A DNA stretch of 35,432 nucleotides from positions 1 to 35,432 of IMG/VR virus record IMGVR_UViG_3300048576_000618; one strand, written 5' to 3'. Shown here in pieces: positions 2,174 through 28,509 of this stretch. Both the position numbers and the translations under genes were made by a program. Source of the DNA: a virus (taxonomy: Duplodnaviria; Caudoviricetes). Below the pieces are notes generated by a model. The model saw nothing but the letters and a program-made list of their open reading frames with translations. It was not told where the DNA came from and did not search any database. Within the stretch, counting starts at the first letter, position 1, and each line of letters opens with the position of its first letter.

Positions 2174-5100
2174 TTAGTTGTCAAGGTATACACATCCGGT
2201 TTGTTTATCGTAACAGAGACTGACCCTATTTGAATCATTTCCGCTTGCAGACTGCGACCAGGAAGGAAATAAAGCCCTGAATAATACCTTTCTTACCGTC
2301 TGTCCATCTTGCTGAAAGTTTTGCCAGCCTAATTGTAAATTTCGTAACGTAGAACCAGCCACCTCGCTATGGTCAAAACCACCTAATGGCGATATTCCAG
2401 CGTGGGAATATACCGAAGCTGAACGCACTAATTCGGCATTAAAGGAAGTCATCTTACTTCCATCCGTATCAGTAATCCACGAAAAAGAACCAATTACATT
2501 ATTTGACGCGTCGTAAAATTTCAAACCGGCTCCATCTGGACTTAATTCTGCCCTTACCCCGTCAGATGCCGTTTTTACCGTTCCGGCTATAGATACATTT
2601 CCATTTGCATCGATGTCGAAATTATCAGTATCAATGATAATTTTTGAGCCGTTAAATTGAATAGCACCATTTCCCAATCGGAATGTTCCGTCTTTTTTAA
2701 ATAATGTAGATGCTATTCCGGCTAATGCATCGGCATAAGTGCCATTTCCCCACATTAAAATATTGTCTGATTGCAGACCGCTCATTCCTGCCGTTATTTG
2801 GCCGTTGAGTGCTTTCAACAAAAGCACAGTGGTAGCTAATAAACCGCCATTTATTTCCGTGCTGCCTTGCAATGCAGATGCGAGATATGTCAATGCACTT
2901 GGTACATCTTCTTGTGCTAATGAAAAATCAGTTGCTTTATTTCCAATTTCAAGTTTGAAATTTCTAAAGAAATAATAAAGTGAATTTTCTAATCCAGTGA
3001 TTATCAAGTTTGAATTTAAATTGAAATTTGAAATTTGGATTGAAAATCTTTTCCATCCTGTTGTCAATTGAGGATATAGTTTGTTGCTTGAATCCGAATC
3101 AACATAAACAGTCATTGATCTTGCACCTCCGTTGCAATAAGCGTCAAAAGACAATATCATTTGCTTTCCTGTTATAGATGAATCTGTTATCGTATCACCT
3201 ATGTATCTGAATATGCCGGCGGAAAAGTTATTTCCCCCTGTCGTAAGTCTAAAATAATCACTAAAATAATTGATAGTGCCTATATCAGAGGTATTACCAA
3301 CCCATCCACTTTTTTGAATGATGGTTTTTATATAATTCCTTCCGCCTACCTGTATATTATTTGCTGTTGTCAAAGCATTATCAGCCTGCGTTTTTGCCGC
3401 ATTGGCCAGCAATTGAGCCGTTCCAGCACTCGACCCGGCGGCACTGGCGGTGCTTTGAGCGGATGAAACGGCATCGTTAACAGATACACCTGATGTGAAC
3501 CTGAAGTTTCCCTGAATATCTCCTGTATCCAGATCAACGTACATTACTCCGCTTTGCGACTGAATTCGGCCAGTTTTGATATGCCGCCCATTGATTGTCG
3601 TGCCTCCATACGTTAGTGACAATAATCGCGTATTAGTTGCAGAGTCTACTGAATTTGCTATGCCAATCCAAAAATGGTAATAATTTACATCACTGTCTGA
3701 TTTTATTTGTTCTGTTGAGAACAACATGATTCCATTGCCGGTAGTCCTTGAACATTTTGCATAAATATAATAGGCAGAATCAGAAGTCAGTGTCAAATCA
3801 CCATCTGAAATAGCCCAAATTTTTGAATTGCCAGAAGAATCAGTAATTGCCTGATGAGTCAATGTACCTCCCGTGTACACGATCCTGTTTTTAGCTCCTA
3901 AATAGTTGGGTTGAAAAAGAGTATTCGTCAGACTGAATTGCTGCGACTTTGAGCTAACAGAAAGCATTGACGTCTCGATTGACAGCGGCCTTATCTTGTC
4001 CGTAAAGTAACCGTCAGGATCGAATACCATGTTCAATACCTCCTGTGAGGCTTTGTAGTTTTGACGTGCCCGTGCCGGATCGTTTAGATTGTTAAGGTTT
4101 ACGATTGTATTAATTGATTTTACATCCGTAACAGTTCTTGCAATTGTTCCTATCTCAACCGGGATGTCAGATATTGTCAACGTATACGAAAACTCATTGA
4201 TCAGATCACGCGAGAACCGAGTTATGCGTATTGCCTTATCAACTTCAAGATCCGAATCTTTAATGTGAATTACATCGCCAATTGAGAATATGTTTGAAGA
4301 CACACCACCCATTATACTCTTTAGATAAAATTGATCTATTGTAAGAGAGTATTGTATGCGCGGTTTAGAATACGTATCTAAAAAGCTTTGTCCTGATGTT
4401 TGCAAGTCTGTTTCAGCCGTATCAATATAGCTTTGCGGCTGATTTACATCAATCAATACATATTGATCACCTACGGCAAATTGAAATTCAGACAGCGTTT
4501 CAGAAGGAAATGAATAATTGTTTTCGTCTGTCTGTTTTACGATTGTAAAAGTCTTTGTTTCGTGATCGTAGGCTGTTGTCTCAAATTCATATCCAGCCAA
4601 CTTTCCGGTATTGAAATGCACCTTTGCGGATGTTCCAGAAAGCAGATATTTTGTTTCTCCGGTACTATCTTTTTCATTAAGATCGAACATGGCATTGTCA
4701 GCAAACTTATACACAGACGATCCAAGTGCTGTAATAGTTCCGATCCGACGCGGGTAGATGCTATCGTATATCTTTTTCCCCTCCCAAATCCCGTATTTAG
4801 CAATTGAATCTGCATCTTCAATATAGCTTAATGCTTTGCTTTTGCCCGGCAAGCATAGTACATCAGCTCTATACTTTGTAGTAACAATATTTTTTGAACC
4901 TCCATATACAAATAGCCGATTGATTATGTTCGACGATGATACCTTTTCGCGCGTCAACTCATAGATTCCTTTACCCTTTCCATATTCAAATACAAAAGGG
5001 AAAAGAGAACCCAACTGCCCGATATTGATAGTCCTGTTACCGGATCCGTCAATTGATATATTGAACTCAGTATCATAGTTATCTGAATTGCAAAGTGATT

Positions 5101-5599
5101 GAATAACAGATAAGCATGTGTCCGAATCACTGAACGATATTGTTTTTGTTTCTGTTCCTGAAGGATAGGTTCCAACTGACCATTTACCAGGAAAAATACG
5201 GTTTGCGTTAGCTACAATAATATCAAGAAACATTTTTATGTCTCCTGTCAATACGTTTCCGTTTAGATCCTGAATGATATTTCCAGTTGTATCAACATTT
5301 ACATTAAAACTTGCACGTAACAAGTCATATTGAACACCTTCGAGCTGAATATCATATTCAAAATGGCTATCAGATACCTTTTTTTCTTTTGCCGGAATAT
5401 TCAACGTATAATCACGCCCGTAAACAGTGATTTTGTCACCAAGATAAAACTTTAGTTTTTTTGCTGATTGTATGGAAATATCTACGGTGTCGGAATCAAA
5501 AGAAACAGTCTGACTTGCTTTTGTTACTGAACTAACATTTTCTTTTGAGTTCAGATTTAAGATAGTTCCGTCAATATGTGTGATTATAATTTGTTCCAT
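2174..5599 (-). CDS. Large tail-tip / Tal-like central fibre (receptor-binding) protein, ~1141 aa
   Basis: Probable start MEQIIITH at 5599, overlapping the Dit stop. N-terminal prophage-tail-like region (FEYGKGKGIY, RLFVYGGSKNI, IYP.R.G), an Ala/Ser coiled linker, and a GGRNY...KLEIGNKATDF carbohydrate-binding-like module. Follows TMP and Dit. Confidence 0.85.
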   Translation of the reverse strand: MEQIIITHIDGTILNLNSKENVSSVTKASQTVSFDSDTVDISIQSAKKLKFYLGDKITVYGRDYTLNIPAKEKKVSDSHFEYDIQLEGVQYDLLRASFNVNVDTTGNIIQDLNGNVLTGDIKMFLDIIVANANRIFPGKWSVGTYPSGTETKTISFSDSDTCLSVIQSLCNSDNYDTEFNISIDGSGNRTINIGQLGSLFPFVFEYGKGKGIYELTREKVSSSNIINRLFVYGGSKNIVTTKYRADVLCLPGKSKALSYIEDADSIAKYGIWEGKKIYDSIYPRRIGTITALGSSVYKFADNAMFDLNEKDSTGETKYLLSGTSAKVHFNTGKLAGYEFETTAYDHETKTFTIVKQTDENNYSFPSETLSEFQFAVGDQYVLIDVNQPQSYIDTAETDLQTSGQSFLDTYSKPRIQYSLTIDQFYLKSIMGGVSSNIFSIGDVIHIKDSDLEVDKAIRITRFSRDLINEFSYTLTISDIPVEIGTIARTVTDVKSINTIVNLNNLNDPARARQNYKASQEVLNMVFDPDGYFTDKIRPLSIETSMLSVSSKSQQFSLTNTLFQPNYLGAKNRIVYTGGTLTHQAITDSSGNSKIWAISDGDLTLTSDSAYYIYAKCSRTTGNGIMLFSTEQIKSDSDVNYYHFWIGIANSVDSATNTRLLSLTYGGTTINGRHIKTGRIQSQSGVMYVDLDTGDIQGNFRFTSGVSVNDAVSSAQSTASAAGSSAGTAQLLANAAKTQADNALTTANNIQVGGRNYIKTIIQKSGWVGNTSDIGTINYFSDYFRLTTGGNNFSAGIFRYIGDTITDSSITGKQMILSFDAYCNGGARSMTVYVDSDSSNKLYPQLTTGWKRFSIQISNFNLNSNLIITGLENSLYYFFRNFKLEIGNKATDFSLAQEDVPSALTYLASALQGSTEINGGLLATTVLLLKALNGQITAGMSGLQSDNILMWGNGTYADALAGIASTLFKKDGTFRLGNGAIQFNGSKIIIDTDNFDIDANGNVSIAGTVKTASDGVRAELSPDGAGLKFYDASNNVIGSFSWITDTDGSKMTSFNAELVRSASVYSHAGISPLGGFDHSEVAGSTLRNLQLGWQNFQQDGQTVRKVLFRALFPSWSQSASGNDSNRVSLCYDKQTGCVYLDN

Positions 5600-6240
5600 A
5601 ATACTGTCCCGGTAGTAGTTAATGACGTTATTTCGTCTATATTTCCAGTTATTACGATATAATATGTACCATCTATTGAATAACTGTGTGCTATTGTTTG
5701 AGATGTACCACCTACATCGTAAGTATGCGAACCATCCCCCCAATAGATATTCAACAGCTTTGATGACGTAACGGTTATACTTACCGTCTTATCAGAGTCA
5801 CTTGTCCTTATGTATTTCAGAACTTTTTTAACTGGCTCCGGCTCTTTCAGTTCGAGGGTAAATGTTCCGGTCATATTTGCATCACTCCACTTTTTGTCAA
5901 CGTCAACGTTTTTGCTCAAATAAACTTCGTACACAAGAGGATTAGATGAGTCTACGGATACCATAAGCCGACGTGTGCCGGTTTGATCAAACAGGGAAAA
6001 AAAATTGTTGCACTGAGTTATGAATGTTGATTTGCTTGCTGCCGTGATGAAGCATGTAAGCTTTATCTCTCTTGCTTTATAATATTTGTGTTCAAGATCT
6101 ATAACGTCTCCATGATACCCCTCCCAGCTGACAGTTAAAGGCTCTTTAAGCTCTGGTCTACTTAACAATCCATCCGATGCCGATACATGAACACCAAACG
6201 TTTTTATGTCAATTCCATCTATTAAGTAGTTTATAGTCAT
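5584..6240 (-). CDS. Distal tail protein (Dit-like) with a C-terminal PKD/Ig-like extension
   Basis: Sits between TMP and the tail-tip gene. N-terminal YLIDGID...FGV pattern; C-terminal IYWGDGS...HSY...GTY motif. Confidence 0.7.
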   Translation of the reverse strand: MTINYLIDGIDIKTFGVHVSASDGLLSRPELKEPLTVSWEGYHGDVIDLEHKYYKAREIKLTCFITAASKSTFITQCNNFFSLFDQTGTRRLMVSVDSSNPLVYEVYLSKNVDVDKKWSDANMTGTFTLELKEPEPVKKVLKYIRTSDSDKTVSITVTSSKLLNIYWGDGSHTYDVGGTSQTIAHSYSIDGTYYIVITGNIDEITSLTTTGTVLWNKL

Positions 6241-6241
6241 A

Positions 6242-6751
6242 TTAATAGGTGCTTTTGTTTTTCTCTATTACTTTTATCAATGCGTTTCCGTTTACTTTCT
6301 GAATAACCCTACCTCCATACCGGTTAATGCAAACTTTTGCTTCATCAAAAGCCACAACGCTTAGTGTGGTATTTTCAAACATGTCTATCACGACGAATGA
6401 ATTTCCCTCTGCTTTAAGTGTTATTTCGGAATCGTGCTTTAAAAACACTTCGCTGATGTTGTATTCGCTTACCTCCACTATACCGGTACATTTTCCAAGT
6501 GCTACTATTTTCTTATCATTAGCCACATGAATAGATTCGTCGAGATGTATGCCAAAAGATTCCATCTTGCCCTTAAAGTTTTTTCGTATGTAATCGTTTG
6601 TAGGATAGTCATTTGACAGACAGAAATCAATACCTCTCAGATACATACTCAAAAGAGCATTTGTATCAGTGGTATTAACCAAATCATTATACCATTCTTC
6701 ACAAATGCCTTTTCTTTTTGCTTGTTTTGCGAGATCTTTGTTTATACTCAT
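6242..6751 (-). CDS. Hypothetical phage protein, 169 aa
   Basis: Probable start MSINKDL at 6751, downstream of the operator and -7 box at 6759-6780. Confidence 0.7.
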   Translation of the reverse strand: MSINKDLAKQAKRKGICEEWYNDLVNTTDTNALLSMYLRGIDFCLSNDYPTNDYIRKNFKGKMESFGIHLDESIHVANDKKIVALGKCTGIVEVSEYNISEVFLKHDSEITLKAEGNSFVVIDMFENTTLSVVAFDEAKVCINRYGGRVIQKVNGNALIKVIEKNKSTY

Positions 6752-6758
6752 AATAATA

Positions 6759-6780
6759 GTATCACTGTGATACAAATTTA
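6759..6780 (-). promoter_or_regulatory. Operator palindrome GTATCACTGTGATAC (6759-6773) abutting a minus-strand -7 box TAAATTTG (6773-6780)
   Basis: Perfect 7-1-7 palindrome in the TMP/downstream-gene gap; the box matches the Bacteroidetes TAnnTTTG consensus. Confidence 0.7.
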
Positions 6781-6781
6781 A

Positions 6782-9700
6782 TTAATTCAAACCAAGCCCC
6801 CGTAATGAATCCCCAGAAAGTTTTGATAAAGTTTTATCAATGTTTTCAAGAAATTTATTGTATGCTGTATTTTTTGCGATTTCATCAAGCTTTAATAGTT
6901 GATTTCTCATAATATCGATGCTTTGAGCCTGATTGATACGAATCGCGTTTATATATCCGGCAAGAAGCGTCGCTGTTTCTTCAGTTACAGTGCTTGAGAT
7001 GCTGCCAGACAAAGAAGAAGAACTACTATTTGAATCTCCAAGGTATTTTTTAATGCTATCCGGCATCTGGTCGAGCACTGACGTAATACCAGAACTTAAA
7101 GACGTCAACTCGGTGCCCATTTGTGCGGCCTGAGTCATAACTGAATCAAATCCTAAGAAATTGCCATCCGAATCAACCCATTTAGCGAGATACTTGTTTA
7201 TGATATTACCAACAGGCTCTTCGACAAGCTTTTGTATGAGCATCTTTTTTATGACGTCCCCGACAACGTCATTTACCTTGTTCGCCCAAGCCTGAGCCGC
7301 ATCTTCGCCGTTGGCAAATGCTGTTATAATTGCATCTCCGAGGCTGTCTGCTACGTCTTTCACTGCACCTCCTATCAGATCCTCTCGAATAGAATTAACG
7401 GTATCCTCAATCTTGTTCTGAATATCCGTTATCTGATTTTTGTATTCGTCAATTTTCCCGCTGTCTGTTTTTTTCTTTGCCTCTTCAGCGGCAATCATTG
7501 CCTGATACTCCTGTTGTTGCTGTTTCAGATTTTTTATTGCAGAAACCTGATTAGCATACGTTTCAGACCCCAACGCTTTGTCTATTGTTCTCTCAAGTTG
7601 CTCATATGTAGCCTGAAGATCCTTTACATTGTCCTGGTGTTTTTTTATTGTAGCTTCCAGTTTTCGGTCTTTAGACCCAAATAACAAATCGTATCCGCTC
7701 GAAATTACACTAATCGATCCTTGAATGATCGAAAGGGGATTACCCGATGCAATTCCGGTAGCCAACTGAGATGCCCCTGACATAATACCGTCGATGTCAC
7801 CTATTACAGCTTTTGTATTCTCTGACATTGATATACCCATTTTATCCATGCCTCCAATAACGGCATCAAATGAGCCTTTTACAAGATCGATACCGGATGC
7901 AGCTGATTTGAATATATCCTTGAAAGCTTTGTCTTTGTCTTCGTCTTTCGTAGCTGATTTGTAACTCTGAAAAGCATCTTTAAGTGCTGCAAATGGATTT
8001 TTGGTTCGTATTTGATCGTTTATTTTATCCATCTGATCACGTAATGCTTTCAACTGATCCGGGGGAAGATTTAATTTTGACCATTCAGCTTCCAACCGAT
8101 TACGCAATTCGATCATTTTATTGATCGTAAGCGTATCCATATTTCCGAATAGAGTTGTCCAGTCTGTTGATTTCATTAGCTGATCAACTTCAAATTGCCC
8201 ACTTGATTTTTTGAAAGCATCATTTCTGGCAGCTATCGCATCCATTATTTGCTGCTTTTCGTCATCTGTTTTTGCCTTAAACAATCTCTTGTTAAGCTCT
8301 TCAATATCATTGTTGTAATTTGCTTGCAACTCAACAATCTGCTGCTGTGTAGTTTTGTATTGATTCAACAGGTCATTGAAGTACTTCCTTGATTCGTCAG
8401 AACTGGTTTTATCGATTAATTGCAACGCTTGCGTCTTTTGCTCAGGAGTAAGATTTTTATTGTCGTTTACCTTTTTACGAGTTTCTGCCAGCTTTTCAAG
8501 GTATTCAGTTGTAGTTTTAGAATCATCTTTCAACTTCGATAAGTCTTCTTGAAATTGTGCAAACGGATCCTTAATGCCTTTTGCCTCATTCAAAGCCTTG
8601 GTTAGCTTGTTAAGGTTTTCGATCTGCTCGGATGTTGCACCACCTTTTGAAACGATAGACTGCAATTCTTTTTGTTTGTTTTCAAGAAATTCAGTGTATG
8701 AAGAACCTCTGCTTTTCAATGCTTCAAATTGCTTGTTTGCTGCTTCCTGACCAAACATTATTACATACTGATAATATTCGTCATACTGCTGCTTCCTGTA
8801 GCTCATTTCTTCGTCAAACGAACGATATGTAAGAGCTTTTATCTTTGCTTCTGCGGCTGCAATGTCGGCAGTGATGTCAACACCTTTTTGTGTAGGTTGA
8901 AGTTTTGAATTGAATTTTGAACCAACAGCTTTGCCGGTTATCGAATCGTAAGCCGTAATACTGTCTTTCATTTTTTTCAAAACTTCAGTCCAATATTCGA
9001 GAGTGCCGAAAGGGGTAATTTTTCCGGCTCTTGCTTGTTTGTCTGAATATGACTTTAGGTGCGCATCTGCCTCTGCAATAAGCTGTGATTGCTTTCTCCA
9101 TGATTCAGATCCTTTTTCTGTATCGGCCATTGCGTCTCTGGCCGTTTGTGCATTCTTCTTTTGATCCTCCCAGTATTGCTTATTCTTTACAATGACTTTT
9201 TCAGTTCCAGTTGCCGTTTTGCTGGTTGCATCTTGAGCATCTCCAAAAATTGAAAGAGTATCTTTAAGGTCATTCTTCATTTTAGAGTTTAACTGATCGA
9301 TGTTGTCAAATGTTTTGCTTACTGATCCGCTAAACCATCCTACTGCCTGCGGTGATATTCCATTTTTGCTCAATATATTTTCTGCCGCATATTTTCCGCT
9401 CTTGTCAAATGCGGCTTTAACCTGAGACAAAAGAGCGTTACCGGCATCAGACCCCAGCTTATCCGTTAGTTTCTTTTGCACTGACTGCCATTGATCTGCT
9501 ATTTTCTCTGAGTAATTATCTGAAATATCTTTTGTGTACTTATCTTTCAATCTTGCTTTTGCAGAATCTACAACGGCTTTAGTTAGCTTGTCATAAGCTA
9601 TTTTCATCCCGTTAACCGTGTTCAACTCCGTGTTTAGCATTGAGTCGTACTGACCGTATTTTTGAATAATAGATTCTTTAGCTTTTTGATATTCCTCCGT

Positions 9701-10891
9701 GCCCTGCTTTGCGTTTTTAAGCCTGTCAAACAGGATATCAAGCGTCATCGTTTCGCTCGATATTGAGGCATTCAATTCTTTTTGTGCATCTTCTGCCACT
9801 GTCGTAGCTGTTGCAAATTTGTATGCAACTACTGCAAGTCCTGCGAGTGCTGCGGCTGCGAGTGCGTACGGATTCATTAGGGCTGCGTTGTTGAATGCAA
9901 TTTGGTTTGCAGTAGCAAATCCTAATGCTTTTGCCATTGTCAAATACTCCTGTATAAATGTTGACAAAGCGACCGCTTTTTGCGCTACGGCAGTGACAAT
10001 TAAAGCGGCTTTATAAGCTCCGTATGCTGCTATAATTGGCTCTATCGCTCCAAGTATGTCTTGATAATGTTCAATAGCGCCAGTTGTTCCGGTTATTATG
10101 TCTGATAGGAAAGAATCATTGCTTTCTCCTATCTTATTCAGCATTCTATCCCAAGCATCTTCCAGGTTGCTAATTTGGCCAGTGAGAGTTTGAGATTGCT
10201 TTTCCATCAGGTTATAAAACATTCCACCCTGATTAGTAAGATTTTGAATAACCTGCTGAACCTGCGGAAATCCTATTTTGCCATTTTCAACCATTTTTGA
10301 AATCTGGTCATCAGCAACACCCATAACCTTTGCAAGCTCATGAATGATTGGAATTCCGGCCTCTGTGAATTGCCTCATGTCATCGCCTTGTAGCTTGCCT
10401 TTAGCCTTTACTTGACCGTATGCAAGAATAAGCCGGTCGAGAGGAACAGAAACGCCAGCAGATATATTGCCGAGTCGAATAACGGTGTCGTTTACATCTT
10501 CGGCGGCAACCTGATACGCAAGAAGTTGTTTTGCACCTGAAGCTACCTGAGTAAGCGTAAATGGTGTTTTTGCAGCTGTGTCAACAATCTGAGCCATCAG
10601 TTTATCTGACTTTTCCTTGCTGCCGAGCATTGTTGTAAATGCTACGTCAAGCTGTTGAAACTCTCCGCGCACATTAACAAGCTCACGTCCAAAACCGGTC
10701 AAAGCCTGAATACCGAAGTAACCGGCCATTAACCCACCTACTTTTGAAAATGCGTCATCAATTTTTTTACTCTCATTGACTGCCGACGAAGAAAGACCCT
10801 GTATTCTTCTTTCAGTTTCTTGACATCCTGCTATCAGCTTATCGTTATTCAGATACGCGTCAAATTCGAGTGCTCCGTTATCTGTATTCAT
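6782..10891 (-). CDS. Tape measure protein, 1369 aa
   Basis: Long helical Ala/Lys/Gln-rich protein with the tape-measure N-terminal domain (AAKTPF...AKQLLAY...YGQVKAKGKLQG). Follows the chaperone genes. Confidence 0.95.
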   Translation of the reverse strand: MNTDNGALEFDAYLNNDKLIAGCQETERRIQGLSSSAVNESKKIDDAFSKVGGLMAGYFGIQALTGFGRELVNVRGEFQQLDVAFTTMLGSKEKSDKLMAQIVDTAAKTPFTLTQVASGAKQLLAYQVAAEDVNDTVIRLGNISAGVSVPLDRLILAYGQVKAKGKLQGDDMRQFTEAGIPIIHELAKVMGVADDQISKMVENGKIGFPQVQQVIQNLTNQGGMFYNLMEKQSQTLTGQISNLEDAWDRMLNKIGESNDSFLSDIITGTTGAIEHYQDILGAIEPIIAAYGAYKAALIVTAVAQKAVALSTFIQEYLTMAKALGFATANQIAFNNAALMNPYALAAAALAGLAVVAYKFATATTVAEDAQKELNASISSETMTLDILFDRLKNAKQGTEEYQKAKESIIQKYGQYDSMLNTELNTVNGMKIAYDKLTKAVVDSAKARLKDKYTKDISDNYSEKIADQWQSVQKKLTDKLGSDAGNALLSQVKAAFDKSGKYAAENILSKNGISPQAVGWFSGSVSKTFDNIDQLNSKMKNDLKDTLSIFGDAQDATSKTATGTEKVIVKNKQYWEDQKKNAQTARDAMADTEKGSESWRKQSQLIAEADAHLKSYSDKQARAGKITPFGTLEYWTEVLKKMKDSITAYDSITGKAVGSKFNSKLQPTQKGVDITADIAAAEAKIKALTYRSFDEEMSYRKQQYDEYYQYVIMFGQEAANKQFEALKSRGSSYTEFLENKQKELQSIVSKGGATSEQIENLNKLTKALNEAKGIKDPFAQFQEDLSKLKDDSKTTTEYLEKLAETRKKVNDNKNLTPEQKTQALQLIDKTSSDESRKYFNDLLNQYKTTQQQIVELQANYNNDIEELNKRLFKAKTDDEKQQIMDAIAARNDAFKKSSGQFEVDQLMKSTDWTTLFGNMDTLTINKMIELRNRLEAEWSKLNLPPDQLKALRDQMDKINDQIRTKNPFAALKDAFQSYKSATKDEDKDKAFKDIFKSAASGIDLVKGSFDAVIGGMDKMGISMSENTKAVIGDIDGIMSGASQLATGIASGNPLSIIQGSISVISSGYDLLFGSKDRKLEATIKKHQDNVKDLQATYEQLERTIDKALGSETYANQVSAIKNLKQQQQEYQAMIAAEEAKKKTDSGKIDEYKNQITDIQNKIEDTVNSIREDLIGGAVKDVADSLGDAIITAFANGEDAAQAWANKVNDVVGDVIKKMLIQKLVEEPVGNIINKYLAKWVDSDGNFLGFDSVMTQAAQMGTELTSLSSGITSVLDQMPDSIKKYLGDSNSSSSSLSGSISSTVTEETATLLAGYINAIRINQAQSIDIMRNQLLKLDEIAKNTAYNKFLENIDKTLSKLSGDSLRGLGLN

Positions 10892-16862: not shown

Positions 16863-17078
16863 ATGGCAGCAAAAGAAATCCTAACTGTTTACAACGCTTG
16901 CAAAGCCGCTACAGTGTCATGCATCAGCAATCCAGAATGGGGAACAAAGCGATTTAACTACAACGAACAGCCATTGACAGAAGGACGATTTGCAAGTACT
17001 GTTGGAATCGGTTGTAATTCAAAAGTACTGTTTGAAAGTGAATATCATTTATGGCAAATAGAAAATGGCATTATTTAA
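16863..17078 (+). CDS. Small hypothetical protein, 71 aa
   Basis: Co-oriented island ORF; its stop overlaps the next ATG (TAATG). Confidence 0.65.
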   Translation: MAAKEILTVYNACKAATVSCISNPEWGTKRFNYNEQPLTEGRFASTVGIGCNSKVLFESEYHLWQIENGII

Positions 17079-17500
17079 TGAATCCTCAATTCAAATCAAA
17101 GGGAGGATCGGTAGATAAACCCTGTTTTACTTTGATTGCCGGAATGGACAAGTCGCCAGCTTATTTGATAGAGACTTCAACCGATATTAAAAAAGTTCCT
17201 TCGTTTGTAAAAATATATTCGGATCATATTGTATATGAGATTTACGATACGGATTCGGATATAATTAAGAAGGTGAAAGAGTTCATGGCTTTATACGGAA
17301 TTATCGACATTAAAATGCGAATGCTTCGTATTCCGGAGCTGAAAAAAATAATGGGTTTCCCGGAAGATTATATTTTGATAGGCACTCAAGCAGAGCAAAA
17401 AAAATTTATCGGGAATGCGGTTGAAGTTCACATGGCTTCGGCATTAGTAAAAGCAACAGCTTTAGGATTAATAAATAAAAATAAAAGCATAGCAGTATGA
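17051..17500 (+). pseudogene. C-terminal fragment of a DNA cytosine-C5 methyltransferase (end of TRD plus motifs IX-X)
   Basis: RML.IPEL..IMGFPEDY...QKKFIGNAV corresponds to motifs IX/X. No motif I (FxGxG) or ENV motif upstream. Could be translated from ATG 17051 or 17078. Confidence 0.7.
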
Positions 17501-18966
17501 ACGGAAACATGTTCGGGATAGACCTGTATCCTACACCAAAAGAGGTCATTGAATTGATGCTAAGGAACGTAATCGTTAGCAACAAGGTAATACTTGAGCC
17601 GTCAGCGGGTACCGGCAACATCGTCGATTATTGCTATGAATACGGCGCAAAGGAAGTAATAGCTTGTGAGATCGACTCGCGTCTTCGCCGGATCCTGTCA
17701 CCAAAGTGCCACATCGTTGAAGACGACTTTATGAATCTAACGCCCGAGAAGGTGTCGCACGTGGACCTTATCGTTATGAATCCGCCTTTCAGTTCTCAGG
17801 AAAAACACGTGCTGCACGCTTGGGATATTGCACCGGCAGGCTGTCAGATCATTTCCCTGTGCAATAACTCCATGCTTGATAACCGATATTCACGGACACG
17901 TACTCAGATCATGGAGTTGGTGAATGCTTACGGCAGCTCACAGGCATTTGGAAGCTGTTTTGACACCGCGGAACGGCAAACGAATGTAGAGATCGGTTGT
18001 GTGTGGTTACATAAGCCAGGTACCGGAGAAAACGAGTTTGAAGGTTACTTCGATTTGTCGGAAGACGAACGGCGTGATATTAACGGATCCGGTATTGTGC
18101 GCTACGACTTTGTGCAGGACATTGTTTCCCGGTACGTGGAATCTGTTAGTATGTTCGACGAGGTTGACGCGGCCAATAATCGTATCAATGCAGCTATCTC
18201 CGGTGTTGTTTCTGGATTCAATATCAGATTTGGGGCTAATAAGACAGGCCGTGACAACGAATATAAGCAGATCGACAGGCAGACATTCAAAAAGGAACTT
18301 CAAAAGGCCGCTTGGAACAAACTGTTTGATCTTTTCAAAATGGACAAATACGTTACTCGTGGCGTAATGGCCGACATCAACAAGTTTGTTGAACAGCAAA
18401 CGCACGTACCATTCACTGTCAAGAATGTATACCTGATGATCCGCATGATTGTCGGAACGCATGGCAGTAGAATGGATAAAGTACTTGTTGAAGCATTCGA
18501 GAAGATATGCTCATTTTCAAAAGATAACAGCGGCGCCGGTGAAGGTTGGCGGACAAATACCGACTTCACGATAAATAAAAAATTCATTCTTCCGTATATG
18601 ACACGCATAGGTTGGTCAGGCGAATTACAGTTGAGTTATTCCAGTAGCGATAAAATGGATGACATTGTAAAAGCTTTATGTTTTCTTACTGCTATAAATT
18701 ATGATCAAGTAAAAAGATTTGATTCATTTATTTCAGACTTCAACAACGCGGTAAAGCATCCAATGAATAAGATGCAATTCGGACAATGGTATGAATGGTC
18801 ATTTTTTAGATTCAAGGGGTATAAGAAGGGTACCATGCACTTTGAGTTTATTGATGAAGACATATGGCTTCGCTTCAACCAAAAAGTAGCTGAGATTAAA
18901 GGATGGAAGAACATTTTGACACATTCAAAAAAAGCGCGCCGTCAAACAACAAGAAAAACGACTTAA
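17497..18966 (+). CDS. SAM-dependent amino (N6-adenine-type) DNA methyltransferase with a DUF4942-like C-terminal domain
   Basis: YPTP, LEPSAGTG (motif I) and MNPPF (motif IV); C-terminal F.FKGYKKGT.H..F. Confidence 0.85.
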   Translation: MNGNMFGIDLYPTPKEVIELMLRNVIVSNKVILEPSAGTGNIVDYCYEYGAKEVIACEIDSRLRRILSPKCHIVEDDFMNLTPEKVSHVDLIVMNPPFSSQEKHVLHAWDIAPAGCQIISLCNNSMLDNRYSRTRTQIMELVNAYGSSQAFGSCFDTAERQTNVEIGCVWLHKPGTGENEFEGYFDLSEDERRDINGSGIVRYDFVQDIVSRYVESVSMFDEVDAANNRINAAISGVVSGFNIRFGANKTGRDNEYKQIDRQTFKKELQKAAWNKLFDLFKMDKYVTRGVMADINKFVEQQTHVPFTVKNVYLMIRMIVGTHGSRMDKVLVEAFEKICSFSKDNSGAGEGWRTNTDFTINKKFILPYMTRIGWSGELQLSYSSSDKMDDIVKALCFLTAINYDQVKRFDSFISDFNNAVKHPMNKMQFGQWYEWSFFRFKGYKKGTMHFEFIDEDIWLRFNQKVAEIKGWKNILTHSKKARRQTTRKTT

Positions 18967-19036
18967 TTTCACAATTATTAATAATTATAAGCCTAATATT
19001 TAACTGTTTGACCGCACCATCTATTAAATATATATG

Positions 19037-19060
19037 TACTTTTGTGTATCACACTGATAC
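19037..19060 (+). promoter_or_regulatory. Promoter of the non-coding unit: -7 box TACTTTTG (19037-19044) and operator GTATCACACTGATAC (19046-19060)
   Basis: Same ATATATGTA..CTTTTG + operator architecture as the promoter at 16640. Confidence 0.75.
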
Positions 19061-19288
19061 GATAACGAATTATATCTGAAGAGAGAAATACGTACAGCGA
19101 CCGGCCAATCCGTGACGGCTAATGACCTGGTTTCGATAATCTAAAGAGAAATTTTACTAACCAAAATTTTAAGATGGGTCGCCCCCTGAAAAATAAGACT
19201 GGTTCGCTACCGTGACTGAAATGGTGCTTCCATAATAAAGTGTAATGCTGCTCTGCAAGGTGACAGTTTTCATCTTAACAGCAAGTTT

Positions 19289-19389
19289 GCCTGTTTAGCT
19301 CAACGGTAGAGCGGTAGATGCTTTTAACTTAACCATGGAACTGAGGAGTAAACATTTACAGGTCGCAAGTTCGAATCTTGCATCAGGCG
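19289..19389 (+). tRNA. tRNA-like element with expanded anticodon arm (Lys-UUU-like loop sequence CTTTTAA plus 25-nt insert)
   Basis: Acceptor GCCTGTT/ATCAGGC, D arm GCTC-AACGGTA-GAGC, variable loop AGGTC, T arm GCAAG-TTCGAAT-CTTGC. Stem GTAGATG/CATTTAC encloses 32 nt. No encoded CCA. Confidence 0.65.
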
Positions 19390-19525
19390 CATAATCCCCT
19401 GCTTTGAGGATTGAGAGGTAATAATCAGGTAAAAGCCCTCCCTATGTGCTACAGGTTATTGAGTTCAAGTCGAAATGAACAGCAAGCACAGATTGCAGAC
19501 TGACAGCCGGGAAAGACCGGCACAC

Positions 19526-19652
19526 GGAGAGATGACGAAAGTCGGATAGACGTACTATGACGATAGGTTTGTATAACAGGATATGCGTATAGGGTAGCGA
19601 GTCGGTGCAACTCCGACGAATACAAATGCCGGTTCGAATCCGGCTCTCTCCA
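19526..19652 (+). tRNA. tRNA-like element with class II (Ser/Leu-like) frame, truncated anticodon arm and ~60-nt variable arm
   Basis: Perfect acceptor GGAGAGA/TCTCTCC, D arm ACG-N13-CGT, T arm GCCGG-TTCGAAT-CCGGC. CTAT-GACG-ATAG replaces the anticodon arm. Confidence 0.65.
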
Positions 19653-19792
19653 CAAACCAAATTAGTGAACCGGTTAAAGACCGGCGGCTCTTGCAGGCCG
19701 ACAAATGTCAAAGTAGCAAGAAGGCTTTGAATCGCTAAGTGACAACATTGCTCTGTTGAGGAACTTAGTTAAAGGTTTTACAGAGAGTTTTT

Positions 19793-19824
19793 AGACCGGC
19801 GGCAATACCGTCGCCGGTCTTTTA
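19793..19824 (+). terminator. Intrinsic terminator closing the non-coding unit
   Basis: AGACCGGCGGC-AATACC-GTCGCCGGTCT followed by TTTA. Confidence 0.7.
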
Positions 19825-19836
19825 AAAGCAAGTAAT

Positions 19837-20220
19837 ATGAAGAATCTGATTATTATTGTAATAATGCTTACGTGCATATCCTGTAATAAGCATGAACCGA
19901 AAATGGATGTGATCGGAGTATGGCGTGTTACACATGTCAGTAATAACGGCAATGATTATCGTAGCGCTATGGAATATAACTGGTACCTGAATTTTTACCC
20001 GGACGGTACCTTTATATACAGTCTTCAATATGAAGATGTGAACGAATACCAAATAGGGCATTATACGATGGAACTTAACCGGATAAGCTGTGATATTCCG
20101 AAAACGCATCCGGTAACAATCGATGTATTGGATTTAAACGGCAATACAATGACGATTAAAATGCAGCAAAATACGGCTATCTCGGTGATGTATGGGATAG
20201 CTGAAAAACAGATTAAATAA
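19837..20220 (+). CDS. Lipoprotein, lipocalin-like beta-barrel
   Basis: Signal peptide MKNLIIIVIMLTCISC with lipobox Cys; IGVW and F.PDGTF motifs. Confidence 0.75.
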   Translation: MKNLIIIVIMLTCISCNKHEPKMDVIGVWRVTHVSNNGNDYRSAMEYNWYLNFYPDGTFIYSLQYEDVNEYQIGHYTMELNRISCDIPKTHPVTIDVLDLNGNTMTIKMQQNTAISVMYGIAEKQIK

Positions 20221-20231
20221 CGTTTAATGTT

Positions 20232-20363
20232 ATGAAACTAACTGATAAACAAAAGGCTCGGGTGATGCTTGCCGTAATGGCATCATGTATACTCTCTATC
20301 TGGATTATCCATATCTACGTTAAAGGATTTGATGCTTGGCTTAACTACATGATAAGTAAATGA
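20232..20363 (+). CDS. Small single-TM protein, 43 aa
   Basis: Hand-translated MKLTDKQKARVMLAVMASCILSIWIIHIYVKGFDAWLNYMISK; ATGA overlap with the next ORF. Confidence 0.55.
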   Translation: MKLTDKQKARVMLAVMASCILSIWIIHIYVKGFDAWLNYMISK

Positions 20364-20500
20364 AAAAGCACACTTTACGCCGAAAATTCAAAGCATGGAT
20401 GCTTTGGCAGGATCGTTTTTGGTCAAAGCCTGAAAACAAAGAAATGCTTACGTACATGTTTATGCATCAACAATTTGGTCAATCTGGAATTTGGCTGTAA
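20360..20500 (+). CDS. Small hypothetical protein, 46 aa
   Basis: Hand-translated MKKHTLRRKFKAWMLWQDRFWSKPENKEMLTYMFMHQQFGQSGIWL; translationally coupled to the previous ORF. Confidence 0.5.
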   Translation: MKKHTLRRKFKAWMLWQDRFWSKPENKEMLTYMFMHQQFGQSGIWL

Positions 20501-20511
20501 TAACATACAAT

Positions 20512-20766
20512 ATGGAATTTGGAAAGAAAGTGATACACGTACACATAAATGAATCTGACGAAAACAGATACTTCGGATCCATTACCGCGATGCTAAATCA
20601 AACAAACAATGGCAAAGATCTCGGTGTTACCAGAAAGGCATTATATGGATCTGGGTTTGCAACAACTGGAACATTCTCGAATGATATATGTGTAATCACA
20701 AGAGGCGAGATTGAACGGATGCCTGGCAACAGAAAGGCTCCTGTAAGGATATTGCGCGTAATTTAA
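20512..20766 (+). CDS. Hypothetical protein, 84 aa, possibly DNA-binding
   Basis: Probable start MEFGKKVIHV at 20512. YFGSITA...LGVTRKALY resembles a small HTH-like fold (weak). Confidence 0.6.
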   Translation: MEFGKKVIHVHINESDENRYFGSITAMLNQTNNGKDLGVTRKALYGSGFATTGTFSNDICVITRGEIERMPGNRKAPVRILRVI

Positions 20767-20778
20767 TAAAATCACATC

Positions 20779-21021
20779 ATGACATCTCAACAGCTCTCAA
20801 TATTTGAATCGGCTTCACCCGTAATTACTCATTCATTTCAAAGAGAAAGGGATAAGAGGGGAAGATTTAAGTATCAGGCGTCCGATCTGCTTAAGCTGAT
20901 AAAACTGTGGAAGAAACGAGCTGCCTTTTGGGAATGCAAGTACGAGGAAGAGCGAAGAAAGTGCGAGCAACTTATTAGAACAAATTCGGTTTTACAAAAA
21001 AGCATCGGAATAAATAAATAA
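20779..21021 (+). CDS. Hypothetical basic coiled-coil protein, 80 aa
   Basis: Co-oriented ORF with an RDKRGRF motif. Confidence 0.6.
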   Translation: MTSQQLSIFESASPVITHSFQRERDKRGRFKYQASDLLKLIKLWKKRAAFWECKYEEERRKCEQLIRTNSVLQKSIGINK

Positions 21022-21022
21022 T

Positions 21023-21030
21023 TATATTTG
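21023..21030 (+). promoter_or_regulatory. -7 promoter box TATATTTG, 6 nt before ATG 21037
   Basis: TAnnTTTG match in the short intergenic gap. Would give a near-leaderless transcript. Confidence 0.45.
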
Positions 21031-21036
21031 CAAAAC

Positions 21037-21543
21037 ATGGAGACACCTAAAACATTTATCACGGAAGAATACATTACCGATTATTTAAGCGATAAATCAC
21101 GTCGCTCAATCAATTCAAAGTCGCTTGTGGGTTTTAATGGAGAAACAACTAATGTTGATTCTTTGTTAGAAAGGATTTTTGGAAAAGTAAAGCTCACAAA
21201 AGAACTGGTAAGTGAAATTGAGTCTATAAAATCAACGGTTCCTGTTGTATCTTTGCTTGGAATTATAAAAAGACTACCACCGGACGTTGGTCAGATAAAC
21301 GAGACAATATCATTGCTTGAAAGGCGCATTGAAGACAAGCGAATTAATAGATCTGTAAATGCAGGTGTAAAAGAAGGCTATGAGTTGTCTATTGACATAC
21401 TGGCAAATGATGTTGAAGACATCGATAGAGAAATAAACTGCCTTAAAACTATTCAAGGCAGGGCGATTGCTTATTTGGCTATTGACTACCTTAAAGGAGA
21501 TTGCAATCAGAATATTTTGTGCGATGTACCAATAAGAAATTGA
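21037..21543 (+). CDS. Hypothetical protein, 168 aa
   Basis: Probable start METPKT at 21037; no recognised family. Confidence 0.65.
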   Translation: METPKTFITEEYITDYLSDKSRRSINSKSLVGFNGETTNVDSLLERIFGKVKLTKELVSEIESIKSTVPVVSLLGIIKRLPPDVGQINETISLLERRIEDKRINRSVNAGVKEGYELSIDILANDVEDIDREINCLKTIQGRAIAYLAIDYLKGDCNQNILCDVPIRN

Positions 21544-21545
21544 TT

Positions 21546-21743
21546 ATGGAAACGATTGACAAAGGATTTGAAAATTATAAACCATACACCTCAAAGTGTA
21601 CGATATGCACGCATTTTGATTCTATTCACTTTACATGCGTTGCTTTTCCTAATTCAATTCCATCTAAATTTTTATCAGGAACCGCCGTGCATGATAAGAT
21701 AGAAACTGGCCAAACCGGAGAAGTTACTCTTACATTGTCTTAG
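21546..21743 (+). CDS. Small Cys/His protein (CxxCxH...CxAFPxxIP...H), 65 aa
   Basis: Start METIDK at 21546. I recall this motif from small genes next to MuF-toxin genes (not verified). Converges on and overlaps the MuF stop by 14 nt. Confidence 0.7.
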   Translation: METIDKGFENYKPYTSKCTICTHFDSIHFTCVAFPNSIPSKFLSGTAVHDKIETGQTGEVTLTLS

Positions 21744-24308: not shown

Positions 24309-24369
24309 GATGTATATATTTATATATGTGCCTACTCTATTAAAGGTTTTCGGCATCCCCTATTGTATT

Positions 24370-28472: not shown

Positions 28473-28509
28473 CAAAATTAAAAAAGACGTACCAGAGTGA
28501 TACGTCTTT
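28473..28509 (-). promoter_or_regulatory. Packaging-operon promoter: -7 box TAATTTTG (28473-28480) with upstream operator GTACCAGAGTGATAC (28489-28503)
   Basis: Operator has 2 mismatches and is extended by flanking AAAGAC/GTCTTT. A TGATAC half-site at 28468-28473 abuts the -7 box. Confidence 0.7.

Follow-up and report, generated by a model that had tools for sequence, protein, structure and literature searches.

What is the function of a phage RNA that has the body of a tRNA and the loop sequence of tRNA-Lys(UUU), but in which that loop is followed by an insert? The question is raised by a 101-nt tRNA-like gene in a 35,432-nt stretch of viral DNA (IMG/VR record IMGVR_UViG_3300048576_000618, positions 1 to 35,432; hereafter the window, meaning the whole stretch analysed). 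Two homologs in other phages keep the same build, and comparison of the three points to a functional RNA outside decoding. To the further reading, that it is an unspliced, non-decoding look-alike of tRNA-Lys which binds a host protein that recognises tRNA-Lys, we give a probability of about 0.4 from the sequence evidence.

A tRNA body with an enlarged anticodon arm

The anatomy of the element had been described in an earlier note on this DNA, and our analysis confirmed it, with every part in its place; in both homologs, too, CUUUUAA and the 7-bp stem are found in the same register. The parts are as follows.

19289..19389 (+), tRNA-like gene, class I body, G73, CCA not encoded
19289-19295/19382-19388 (+), acceptor stem, 7 bp, with one T-T at pair 6
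19298-19301/19309-19312 (+), D stem, 4 bp
19314..19359 (+), enlarged anticodon arm, in which a 7-bp stem (19314-19320/19353-19359) encloses 32 nt
19321..19327 (+), CUUUUAA, the tRNA-Lys(UUU) loop sequence, the same in all three homologs
19328..19352 (+), insert, 25 nt, last bases AAA
19365-19381 (+), T arm, canonical, preceded by a 5-nt variable loop

The Rfam tRNA model (RF00005) matches the element with 50.8 bits (E 3.3e-8, cut-off 29), and it is the sole family at gathering score in 18950-19850, where group I introns, tmRNA, Y RNAs and ribozymes were not found. The body has the 7-bp acceptor stem, the D arm with GG and the T arm with TTCRA of a tRNA. It lacks the 5-bp stem and 7-nt loop of a decoding tRNA, in whose place all three homologs have a 7-bp stem enclosing 32-36 nt. 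The loop heptamer CUUUUAA, which we take from established knowledge to be the anticodon loop of tRNA-Lys(UUU), is also found in the tRNA-Lys sequence of phage T5. The discriminator G73 lies at 19389, and CCA is encoded in none of the three homologs, so host addition is possible. ARAGORN without introns reports no gene in the whole window, and with introns allowed and a lowered threshold there is noise among the matches listed. Because its default settings miss all three genes, tRNA-like genes of such build are likely under-annotated.

An arm-free pattern that fixed only the D and T loops gave, in 24 of the 64 parts of IMG/VR, 121 loci with 104 distinct enlarged arms; five of these arms have a stem of at least 7 bp, and two of the five have CUUUUAA directly behind it. 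The first homolog, L267 (= L165), lies after an antirepressor in the early region of a temperate phage (record G003), whose portal matches Bacteroides phages and which has two proteins in common with the window. The second, L350 (= L127), lies between NinG and terminase in a provirus (G484) that is a distant siphovirus relative. The three carriers are only distantly related to one another and likely infect Bacteroidota bacteria. L350 agrees at 17 of the 23 loop positions common to the window and L267, compared with 11 for the next-best arm, and none of 200,000 shuffles reaches 17. When L350 was left out of its building, model R1 scored it at 46 bits, inside the range of ordinary tRNAs (45-57), and so did not distinguish it; L350 is therefore the weaker member of the family, assigned to it by the anchored loop score. 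The gene is the sole RF00005 match both in G484 and in the provirus record of the window (G000), so it does not belong to a decoding tRNA array. In G003, the other three RF00005 matches comprise a tRNA-Met(CAT) of host type and two partial copies.

Relatives of the window reached through the scaffold protein (0 of 80 loci) or through the neighbouring methylase (0 of 2) have no such gene. Four viral pattern searches gave two chance matches, no match, one real match among 25 and one among 6, the real one being L267 both times; none of five metagenome matches was real, nor any of 41 in GTDB with a free triplet. Neither a DNA search of 401 genomes of the order of a Bacteroidales-labelled centre (no member) nor a pattern search of 401 genomes of its phylum (two matches, both in coding DNA) extended the family. 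Model R2 matched in 44 of 151 genomes; the matches listed are all 72-73 nt, and the ten inspected are ordinary Thr, Gly or Lys tRNAs. No further member was found by blastn against GenBank phages and plasmids, by model R1 in 48 and 45 viral records (50 loci each) or by model R2 in 100 sources (99 of the 121 arm-free loci) and four cultured phages. Further members likely exist, since the arm-free scan took 24/64 parts of IMG/VR and required particular D and T loops.

Conservation, splicing and fold of the arm

We compared the stems between the window and L267, the window and L350, and L267 and L350. In this order, the acceptor stems are identical at 7/14, 3/14 and 2/14 positions with pairing kept, the T stems at 5/10, 4/10 and 5/10, and the anticodon stems at 12/14, 5/14 and 4/14. 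The loop heptamer is identical (7/7) in every pairwise comparison. In the three-way alignment, 13 of 30 tested pairs have changed on both sides (acceptor 6/7, anticodon stem 4/7, T stem 3/5); none of 500 shuffles reaches these whole-structure counts and none of six slid structures comes near, with the caveat that kinship can beat shuffles and that the D and T loops had been fixed beforehand in the search pattern. Both extra pairs of the anticodon stem are among those changed on both sides, which strengthens the argument of the earlier note that the additional 2 bp speak against normal decoding. Since the stems diverge yet still pair while the loop is invariant, we regard the RNA as selected and not as a decayed tRNA; it is very probably a functional RNA that does not decode.

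The insert follows the 7-bp stem and CUUUUAA directly in all three homologs and is 25-29 nt long. Between the window and L267, 16 of 25 positions are identical without gaps (42 of 200,000 shuffles are as good), and the flanks of the two genes are unrelated (20/90 and 31/100 identical). Ten insert positions are the same in all three (3, 4, 10, 12-14, 17 and three near the 3' end), and the inserts end in AAA (window), AAG (L267) and AAA (L350), the two Lys codons. A guide-like loop displayed on a tRNA scaffold, also proposed earlier, finds no footing here, as the insert is conserved and not variable. No neighbouring protein is common to the three loci; together with the unrelated flanks, this argues that the tRNA-like RNA has been kept on its own. 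That the gene is a decayed tRNA-Lys pseudogene with a random insertion is hardly credible. The T-T mismatch, the lack of an encoded CCA, the rarity of the gene and its absence from 80 of 80 related loci would suit such a relic, and some of the covariation could also arise from mosaic swapping of stems between tRNA genes; however, the 13 two-sided changes keep a fixed register, the T-T position is A-U in both homologs, and the ungapped likeness of the inserts lies between unrelated flanks. Random decay of all arms and loss of CTTTTAA, which would have marked a plain pseudo-tRNA, are the reverse of what the 13/30 changed pairs and the 3/3 conserved heptamers show.

Like the intron-bearing pre-tRNAs of archaea and eukarya (site 37/38) and the putative ones of Lak phage (PMC6784885), the RNAs of the family have a short insert 3' of an anticodon-like triplet. 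They differ from them in the 7 bp left in the stem after removal, in the failure of site 37/38 in L267 and in the lack of splicing enzymes in the phages. An intron-like insert after position 37 had been suggested for the window; the insert itself stands, whereas the cut site is ambiguous there, because the loop comes out the same for a cut after 36, 37 or 38; across the three homologs, the Lys loop is restored by a cut after 38 alone. A canonical 37/38 intron does not hold: this cut leaves L267 with G38, which pairs with C32, and the 7-bp stem remains. In the window and L267, a stem of 5 or 6 bp with a canonical loop cannot be obtained by any single excision. The splice motif of archaea and eukarya is a bulge-helix-bulge of 3-4-3. 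By inspection it is absent, and the nearest fold, with a 4-nt bulge and a 5-bp helix, has a probability of 0.02 in the window and 0.18 in L267. Profiles of EndA (PF01974) and RtcB (PF01139) have no match in the three phage records, of which G000 is 71% complete; among the controls, EndA was found only in the four archaeal ones and RtcB in Bacteroides thetaiotaomicron. No insert-less allele with a normal tRNA was found, in a weak test whose patterns demanded an enlarged arm or a shifted loop, and the Lak phage tRNA introns are themselves predictions resting on insert-less alleles (PMC6784885). Splicing of the insert is poorly supported. It is quite unlikely that the gene specifies a pre-tRNA with a small intron, from which an unknown nuclease and host RtcB would make an RNA resembling tRNA-Lys but with 7 bp in the anticodon stem, to act as a latent decoy or to decode in an unusual way, even with the cut after 38, the purine discriminators (G, G and A), the RtcB of the Bacteroides control and the putative Lak introns in its favour.

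The U-run of the heptamer may have a partner within the arm. RNAalifold of the window and L267 pairs it with a purine tract in the insert, and single-sequence ensembles pair it partly, with differing registers. All three homologs share three pairs that join the U-run to the 3' end of the insert (columns 35-68, 36-67 and 38-65); since these pairs never vary, the helix is unproven. Pairing of UUU in cis with the terminal AAA or AAG is a possibility in the models, in which it is less favourable than the open loop in 3/3. These folds bear on the main rival reading, in which the tRNA body would do no more than stabilise and release a loop of ~32 nt that binds a phage or host protein unrelated to tRNA-Lys, and CUUUUAA would be an inherited piece of this loop motif or a strand of an irregular helix. 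The ten identical insert positions, the three kept pairs and the RNAalifold consensus agree with this scaffold role; against it, the kept pairs are uninformative on the helix because they are invariant, the registers differ among the single-sequence folds, and the sole fully invariant run is the 7-nt Lys loop, set on its stem as in a tRNA. We consider it possible but doubtful.

A candidate reader of the tRNA-Lys loop

The family has in common with tRNA-Lys(UUU) the acceptor, D arm, 5-nt variable loop, T arm, loop heptamer and purine discriminator, and differs from it in the 7-bp stem, the 32-36 nt enclosed and a U-run that is predicted to be partly paired. The elbow, the 7-bp stem, the Lys loop and ten insert bases are fixed while the acceptor is free, which we take to mean that the arm is read by a protein; the RNA is taken to be built to stay outside decoding. 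In the reading as bait for a protein that reads tRNA-Lys, the RNA would be transcribed from an upstream promoter together with lytic genes, since the same palindrome precedes late operons (see below), and, given its intact elbow, its ends would be trimmed by RNase P and 3' nucleases of the host. The two extra pairs and the insert would shift the Lys sequence from the decoding position and partly pair it, so that the ribosome would not use it; with connectors of normal length around the arm, tRNA geometry suggests that the two pairs displace the triplet. A host protein that reads tRNA-Lys would then bind the RNA and be titrated. Because the family is predicted not to decode, it could act only by binding. 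The most plausible reader would be an anticodon-arm nuclease of anti-phage defence, or else LysRS or a U34/A37 modification enzyme.

The specificities known for AriB, PrrC and P2 OLD come from E. coli enzymes and not from those of Bacteroidota. tRNA-Lys(UUU) is reported as the target of PrrC (PMC3014915) and AriB (PMC12409363). AriB cleaves at the motif U36-A-A-U-C, in which U39 is essential (PMC12409363), PrrC reads a 17-nt stem-loop with a modified U34 (PMC3014915), and P2 OLD cuts a paired CNG (PMC12445682), which is not present in the tRNA-like RNA. Phages counter such enzymes with tRNAs: T5 tRNA-Lys, tRNA-Thr and tRNA-Asn counter PARIS (PMC12409363), and a phage tRNA-Thr counters P2 OLD (PMC12445682). 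The family resembles these tRNAs in being phage-encoded, related to tRNA-Lys and devoid of the nuclease cleavage motif; they decode and replace the cut host tRNA, whereas the family is predicted not to decode.

Several points weigh against the bait reading. The AriB motif is absent from all three homologs, and the unspliced RNA has neither a 17-nt stem-loop of the PrrC type nor a 7-nt loop; bait action thus needs binding without either determinant, and the missing motifs fit an uncut inhibitor and an ignored non-substrate equally. The three anticodon Us are predicted to be paired in part (unpaired probabilities 0.26/0.45/0.64, 0.12/0.32/0.33 and 0.03/0.03/0.06 in the three homologs), and the invariance of the loop could, in these models, serve a fold or another protein. 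The insert of L350 taken alone keeps 10 of 16 shared positions (shuffle p about 0.008), and conservation of the insert beyond the Lys loop is left unexplained by bait for a tRNA-Lys enzyme. The family has three members only. In the literature consulted, which included few subscription papers, we found no proven tRNA-shaped RNA decoy, nor any account of the present family; documented counter-measures of phages are functional, cleavage-resistant tRNAs. A decoy for PrrC or AriB, as the earlier note put it, keeps its standing as a conjecture, with the AriB motif missing in 3/3 and no 7-nt loop in the unspliced RNA. The most specific form of the bait reading is rather unlikely as a whole: a decoy family with elbow and Lys loop kept, pushed two base pairs out of register and folded on an insert ending in AAA or AAG, which would bind and jam the tRNA-Lys nucleases of Bacteroidota defence while staying uncut and undecoded, possibly unmasked by cleavage of the insert.

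Genomic setting and related phage RNAs

The window is a siphovirus-like provirus with terminase, portal, capsid, tape measure and endolysin genes. The capsid proteins of the window and of Porphyromonas phage005 share 66.9% identity, which makes a Bacteroidales host likely. The tRNA-like gene lies in a block (16863-21743) opposite to the late genes, between the head-morphogenesis and scaffold genes; in Porphyromonas phage005 the same slot is filled by a different reversed block. Within the block, 870 nt separate a methylase-like gene from a lipocalin-like gene, and the tRNA-like gene is inside this interval. The longest plus-strand ATG frame in 19050-19825 has 34 amino acids. From promoter to terminator, the sequence suggests a non-coding unit regulated with the lytic genes, with the following features beside the gene itself.

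19037..19060 (+), likely promoter of the non-coding unit: TAnnTTTG box at 19037-19044, then a perfect palindrome at 19046-19060
6759, 16506, 16652, 19046 and 25886, palindrome GTATCA-N3-TGATAC, with one mismatch at 28489 and 31482; mostly before late operons
19246..19283 (+), predicted hairpin ending 5 nt 5' of the tRNA-like gene; not tested against chance
19498..19521 (+), 24-nt hairpin motif, widespread in phages, 4 nt 5' of the second tRNA-like gene
19526..19652 (+), second tRNA-like gene: class II body, A73, enlarged D loop, 28-nt anticodon loop, long variable arm
19786..19825 (+), terminator-like hairpin with a T run (core 19797-19813), closing the unit

The TAnnTTTG box, which we take to be the Bacteroidota -7 consensus, is not enriched in the window (35 matches vs 39.9 expected). 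The perfect palindrome has five copies there vs none in 100 shuffles, and a similar box occurs in 33 of 80 related loci; it is likely the site of a phage regulator. The 24-nt hairpin motif has 48 exact viral matches (L009-L056) and no Rfam family, occurs also in coliphage mEp390, and is followed by a tRNA beginning 6 nt behind it in 18 of the 48 loci, many of them from near-identical phages. The second tRNA-like gene is built like T5 RNA1; Rfam matches its T arm alone, ARAGORN misses it, and it has no homolog among 366 loci. The segment 19185-19288 looked by eye like a good relative of T4 rnaD, but 15 of 200 shuffles score equally, and we rejected it.

Hairpins of differing sequence, likewise not tested against chance, end 5-6 nt upstream of both homologs too, and an open reading frame starts 23 nt (L267) and 13 nt (L350) downstream of the gene. 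With the several structured pieces of the non-coding unit in the window, they recall a processing signal, in which the tRNA shape would guide RNase P and 3' trimming so that adjacent RNAs or mRNAs are set free from the phage transcript. This reading is very unlikely: the neighbours differ at all three loci, and RNase P does not read the anticodon arm, so the invariant loop and the covarying extra pairs would be left without a reason.

Elsewhere in the window, a weak Rfam alpha_tmRNA match (20653-20744, +) scores 23.8 bits with a cut-off of 50, and its 3' part recurs in L194; a DUF805b RNA above cut-off lies behind the portal gene (24329-24363, -). None of 18 proteins submitted to PADLOC matches a defence model other than methyltransferases. 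Next to its integration site, G003 has a type I restriction-modification operon (4091-9793), and it also has an RT-17 RNA match (59406-59488). A tRNA-like sequence with a T arm and a short acceptor stem, below the Rfam threshold, lies about 180-250 nt upstream of the L350 homolog.

The nearest known relatives in build are RNA1 and RNA2 of phage T5 (NC_005859, 'tRNA-like stable RNA with unknown functions') and species 1 of T4 (rnaC, NC_000866), which have the same acceptor/T top half and an enlarged arm replacing the anticodon. Judged as these RNAs are, by a tRNA top half without a usable anticodon arm, the gene falls within their kind. We know of no function assigned to T4 species 1 or the T5 RNAs over decades. 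The roles of T4 RNAC and RNAD are given as unknown (PMC3014915). Likeness in sequence to the T4 and T5 RNAs is not significant, as 19, 44 and 24 of 200 shuffles score equally. The T4 and T5 RNAs, with their long variable arms, are encoded within tRNA arrays, and their phages are lytic coliphages; in the family, by contrast, the core is of canonical class I, the 7-bp stem covaries and the Lys loop is invariant, and the gene is not in an array, being the sole RF00005 match in two phages.

Other tRNA-like elements were seen in the course of the searches. Six phage genes (L067, L069, L080, L122, L149 and L154) have a hairpin and ACAGCAA inserted in the anticodon arm; in L067, L122 and L149 an anticodon-like loop follows, and the inserts may be small tRNA introns in the 5' stem strand. 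ACAGCAA is also present at 19278 and 19479 of the window. Seven 5'-half tRNA elements (L297, L300, L306, L310, L317, L319 and L321), mostly in Bacteroidota genomes and often adjoining tRNA genes, have a D arm and a conserved pyrimidine-rich stretch but no T arm. A Bacteroidaceae metagenome-assembled genome (L291, around 2001) has a full tRNA body with an anticodon-arm insert of roughly 60 nt that is not homologous to the Lys-loop family. In Bacteroides phage BS-TP4, 87 nt without annotation (PQ571277, 58380-58466, -; L371) form a tRNA-like gene whose anticodon arm is enlarged and lacks the Lys loop; because the phage is in culture, this gene is a ready test object for the enlarged-arm class.

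In summary, the family is real, conserved and rare, and it belongs to a kind of phage RNA that is known but still lacks an explanation; its determinant is unusually specific and open to test. The fixed elbow, the 7-bp stem and the tRNA-Lys(UUU) loop point to a determinant that can be mutated, and tRNA-Lys(UUU) is a recurrent target of anti-phage tRNA nucleases. If the RNA is bait, phages would counter tRNA nucleases by an RNA inhibitor as well as by replacement tRNAs.
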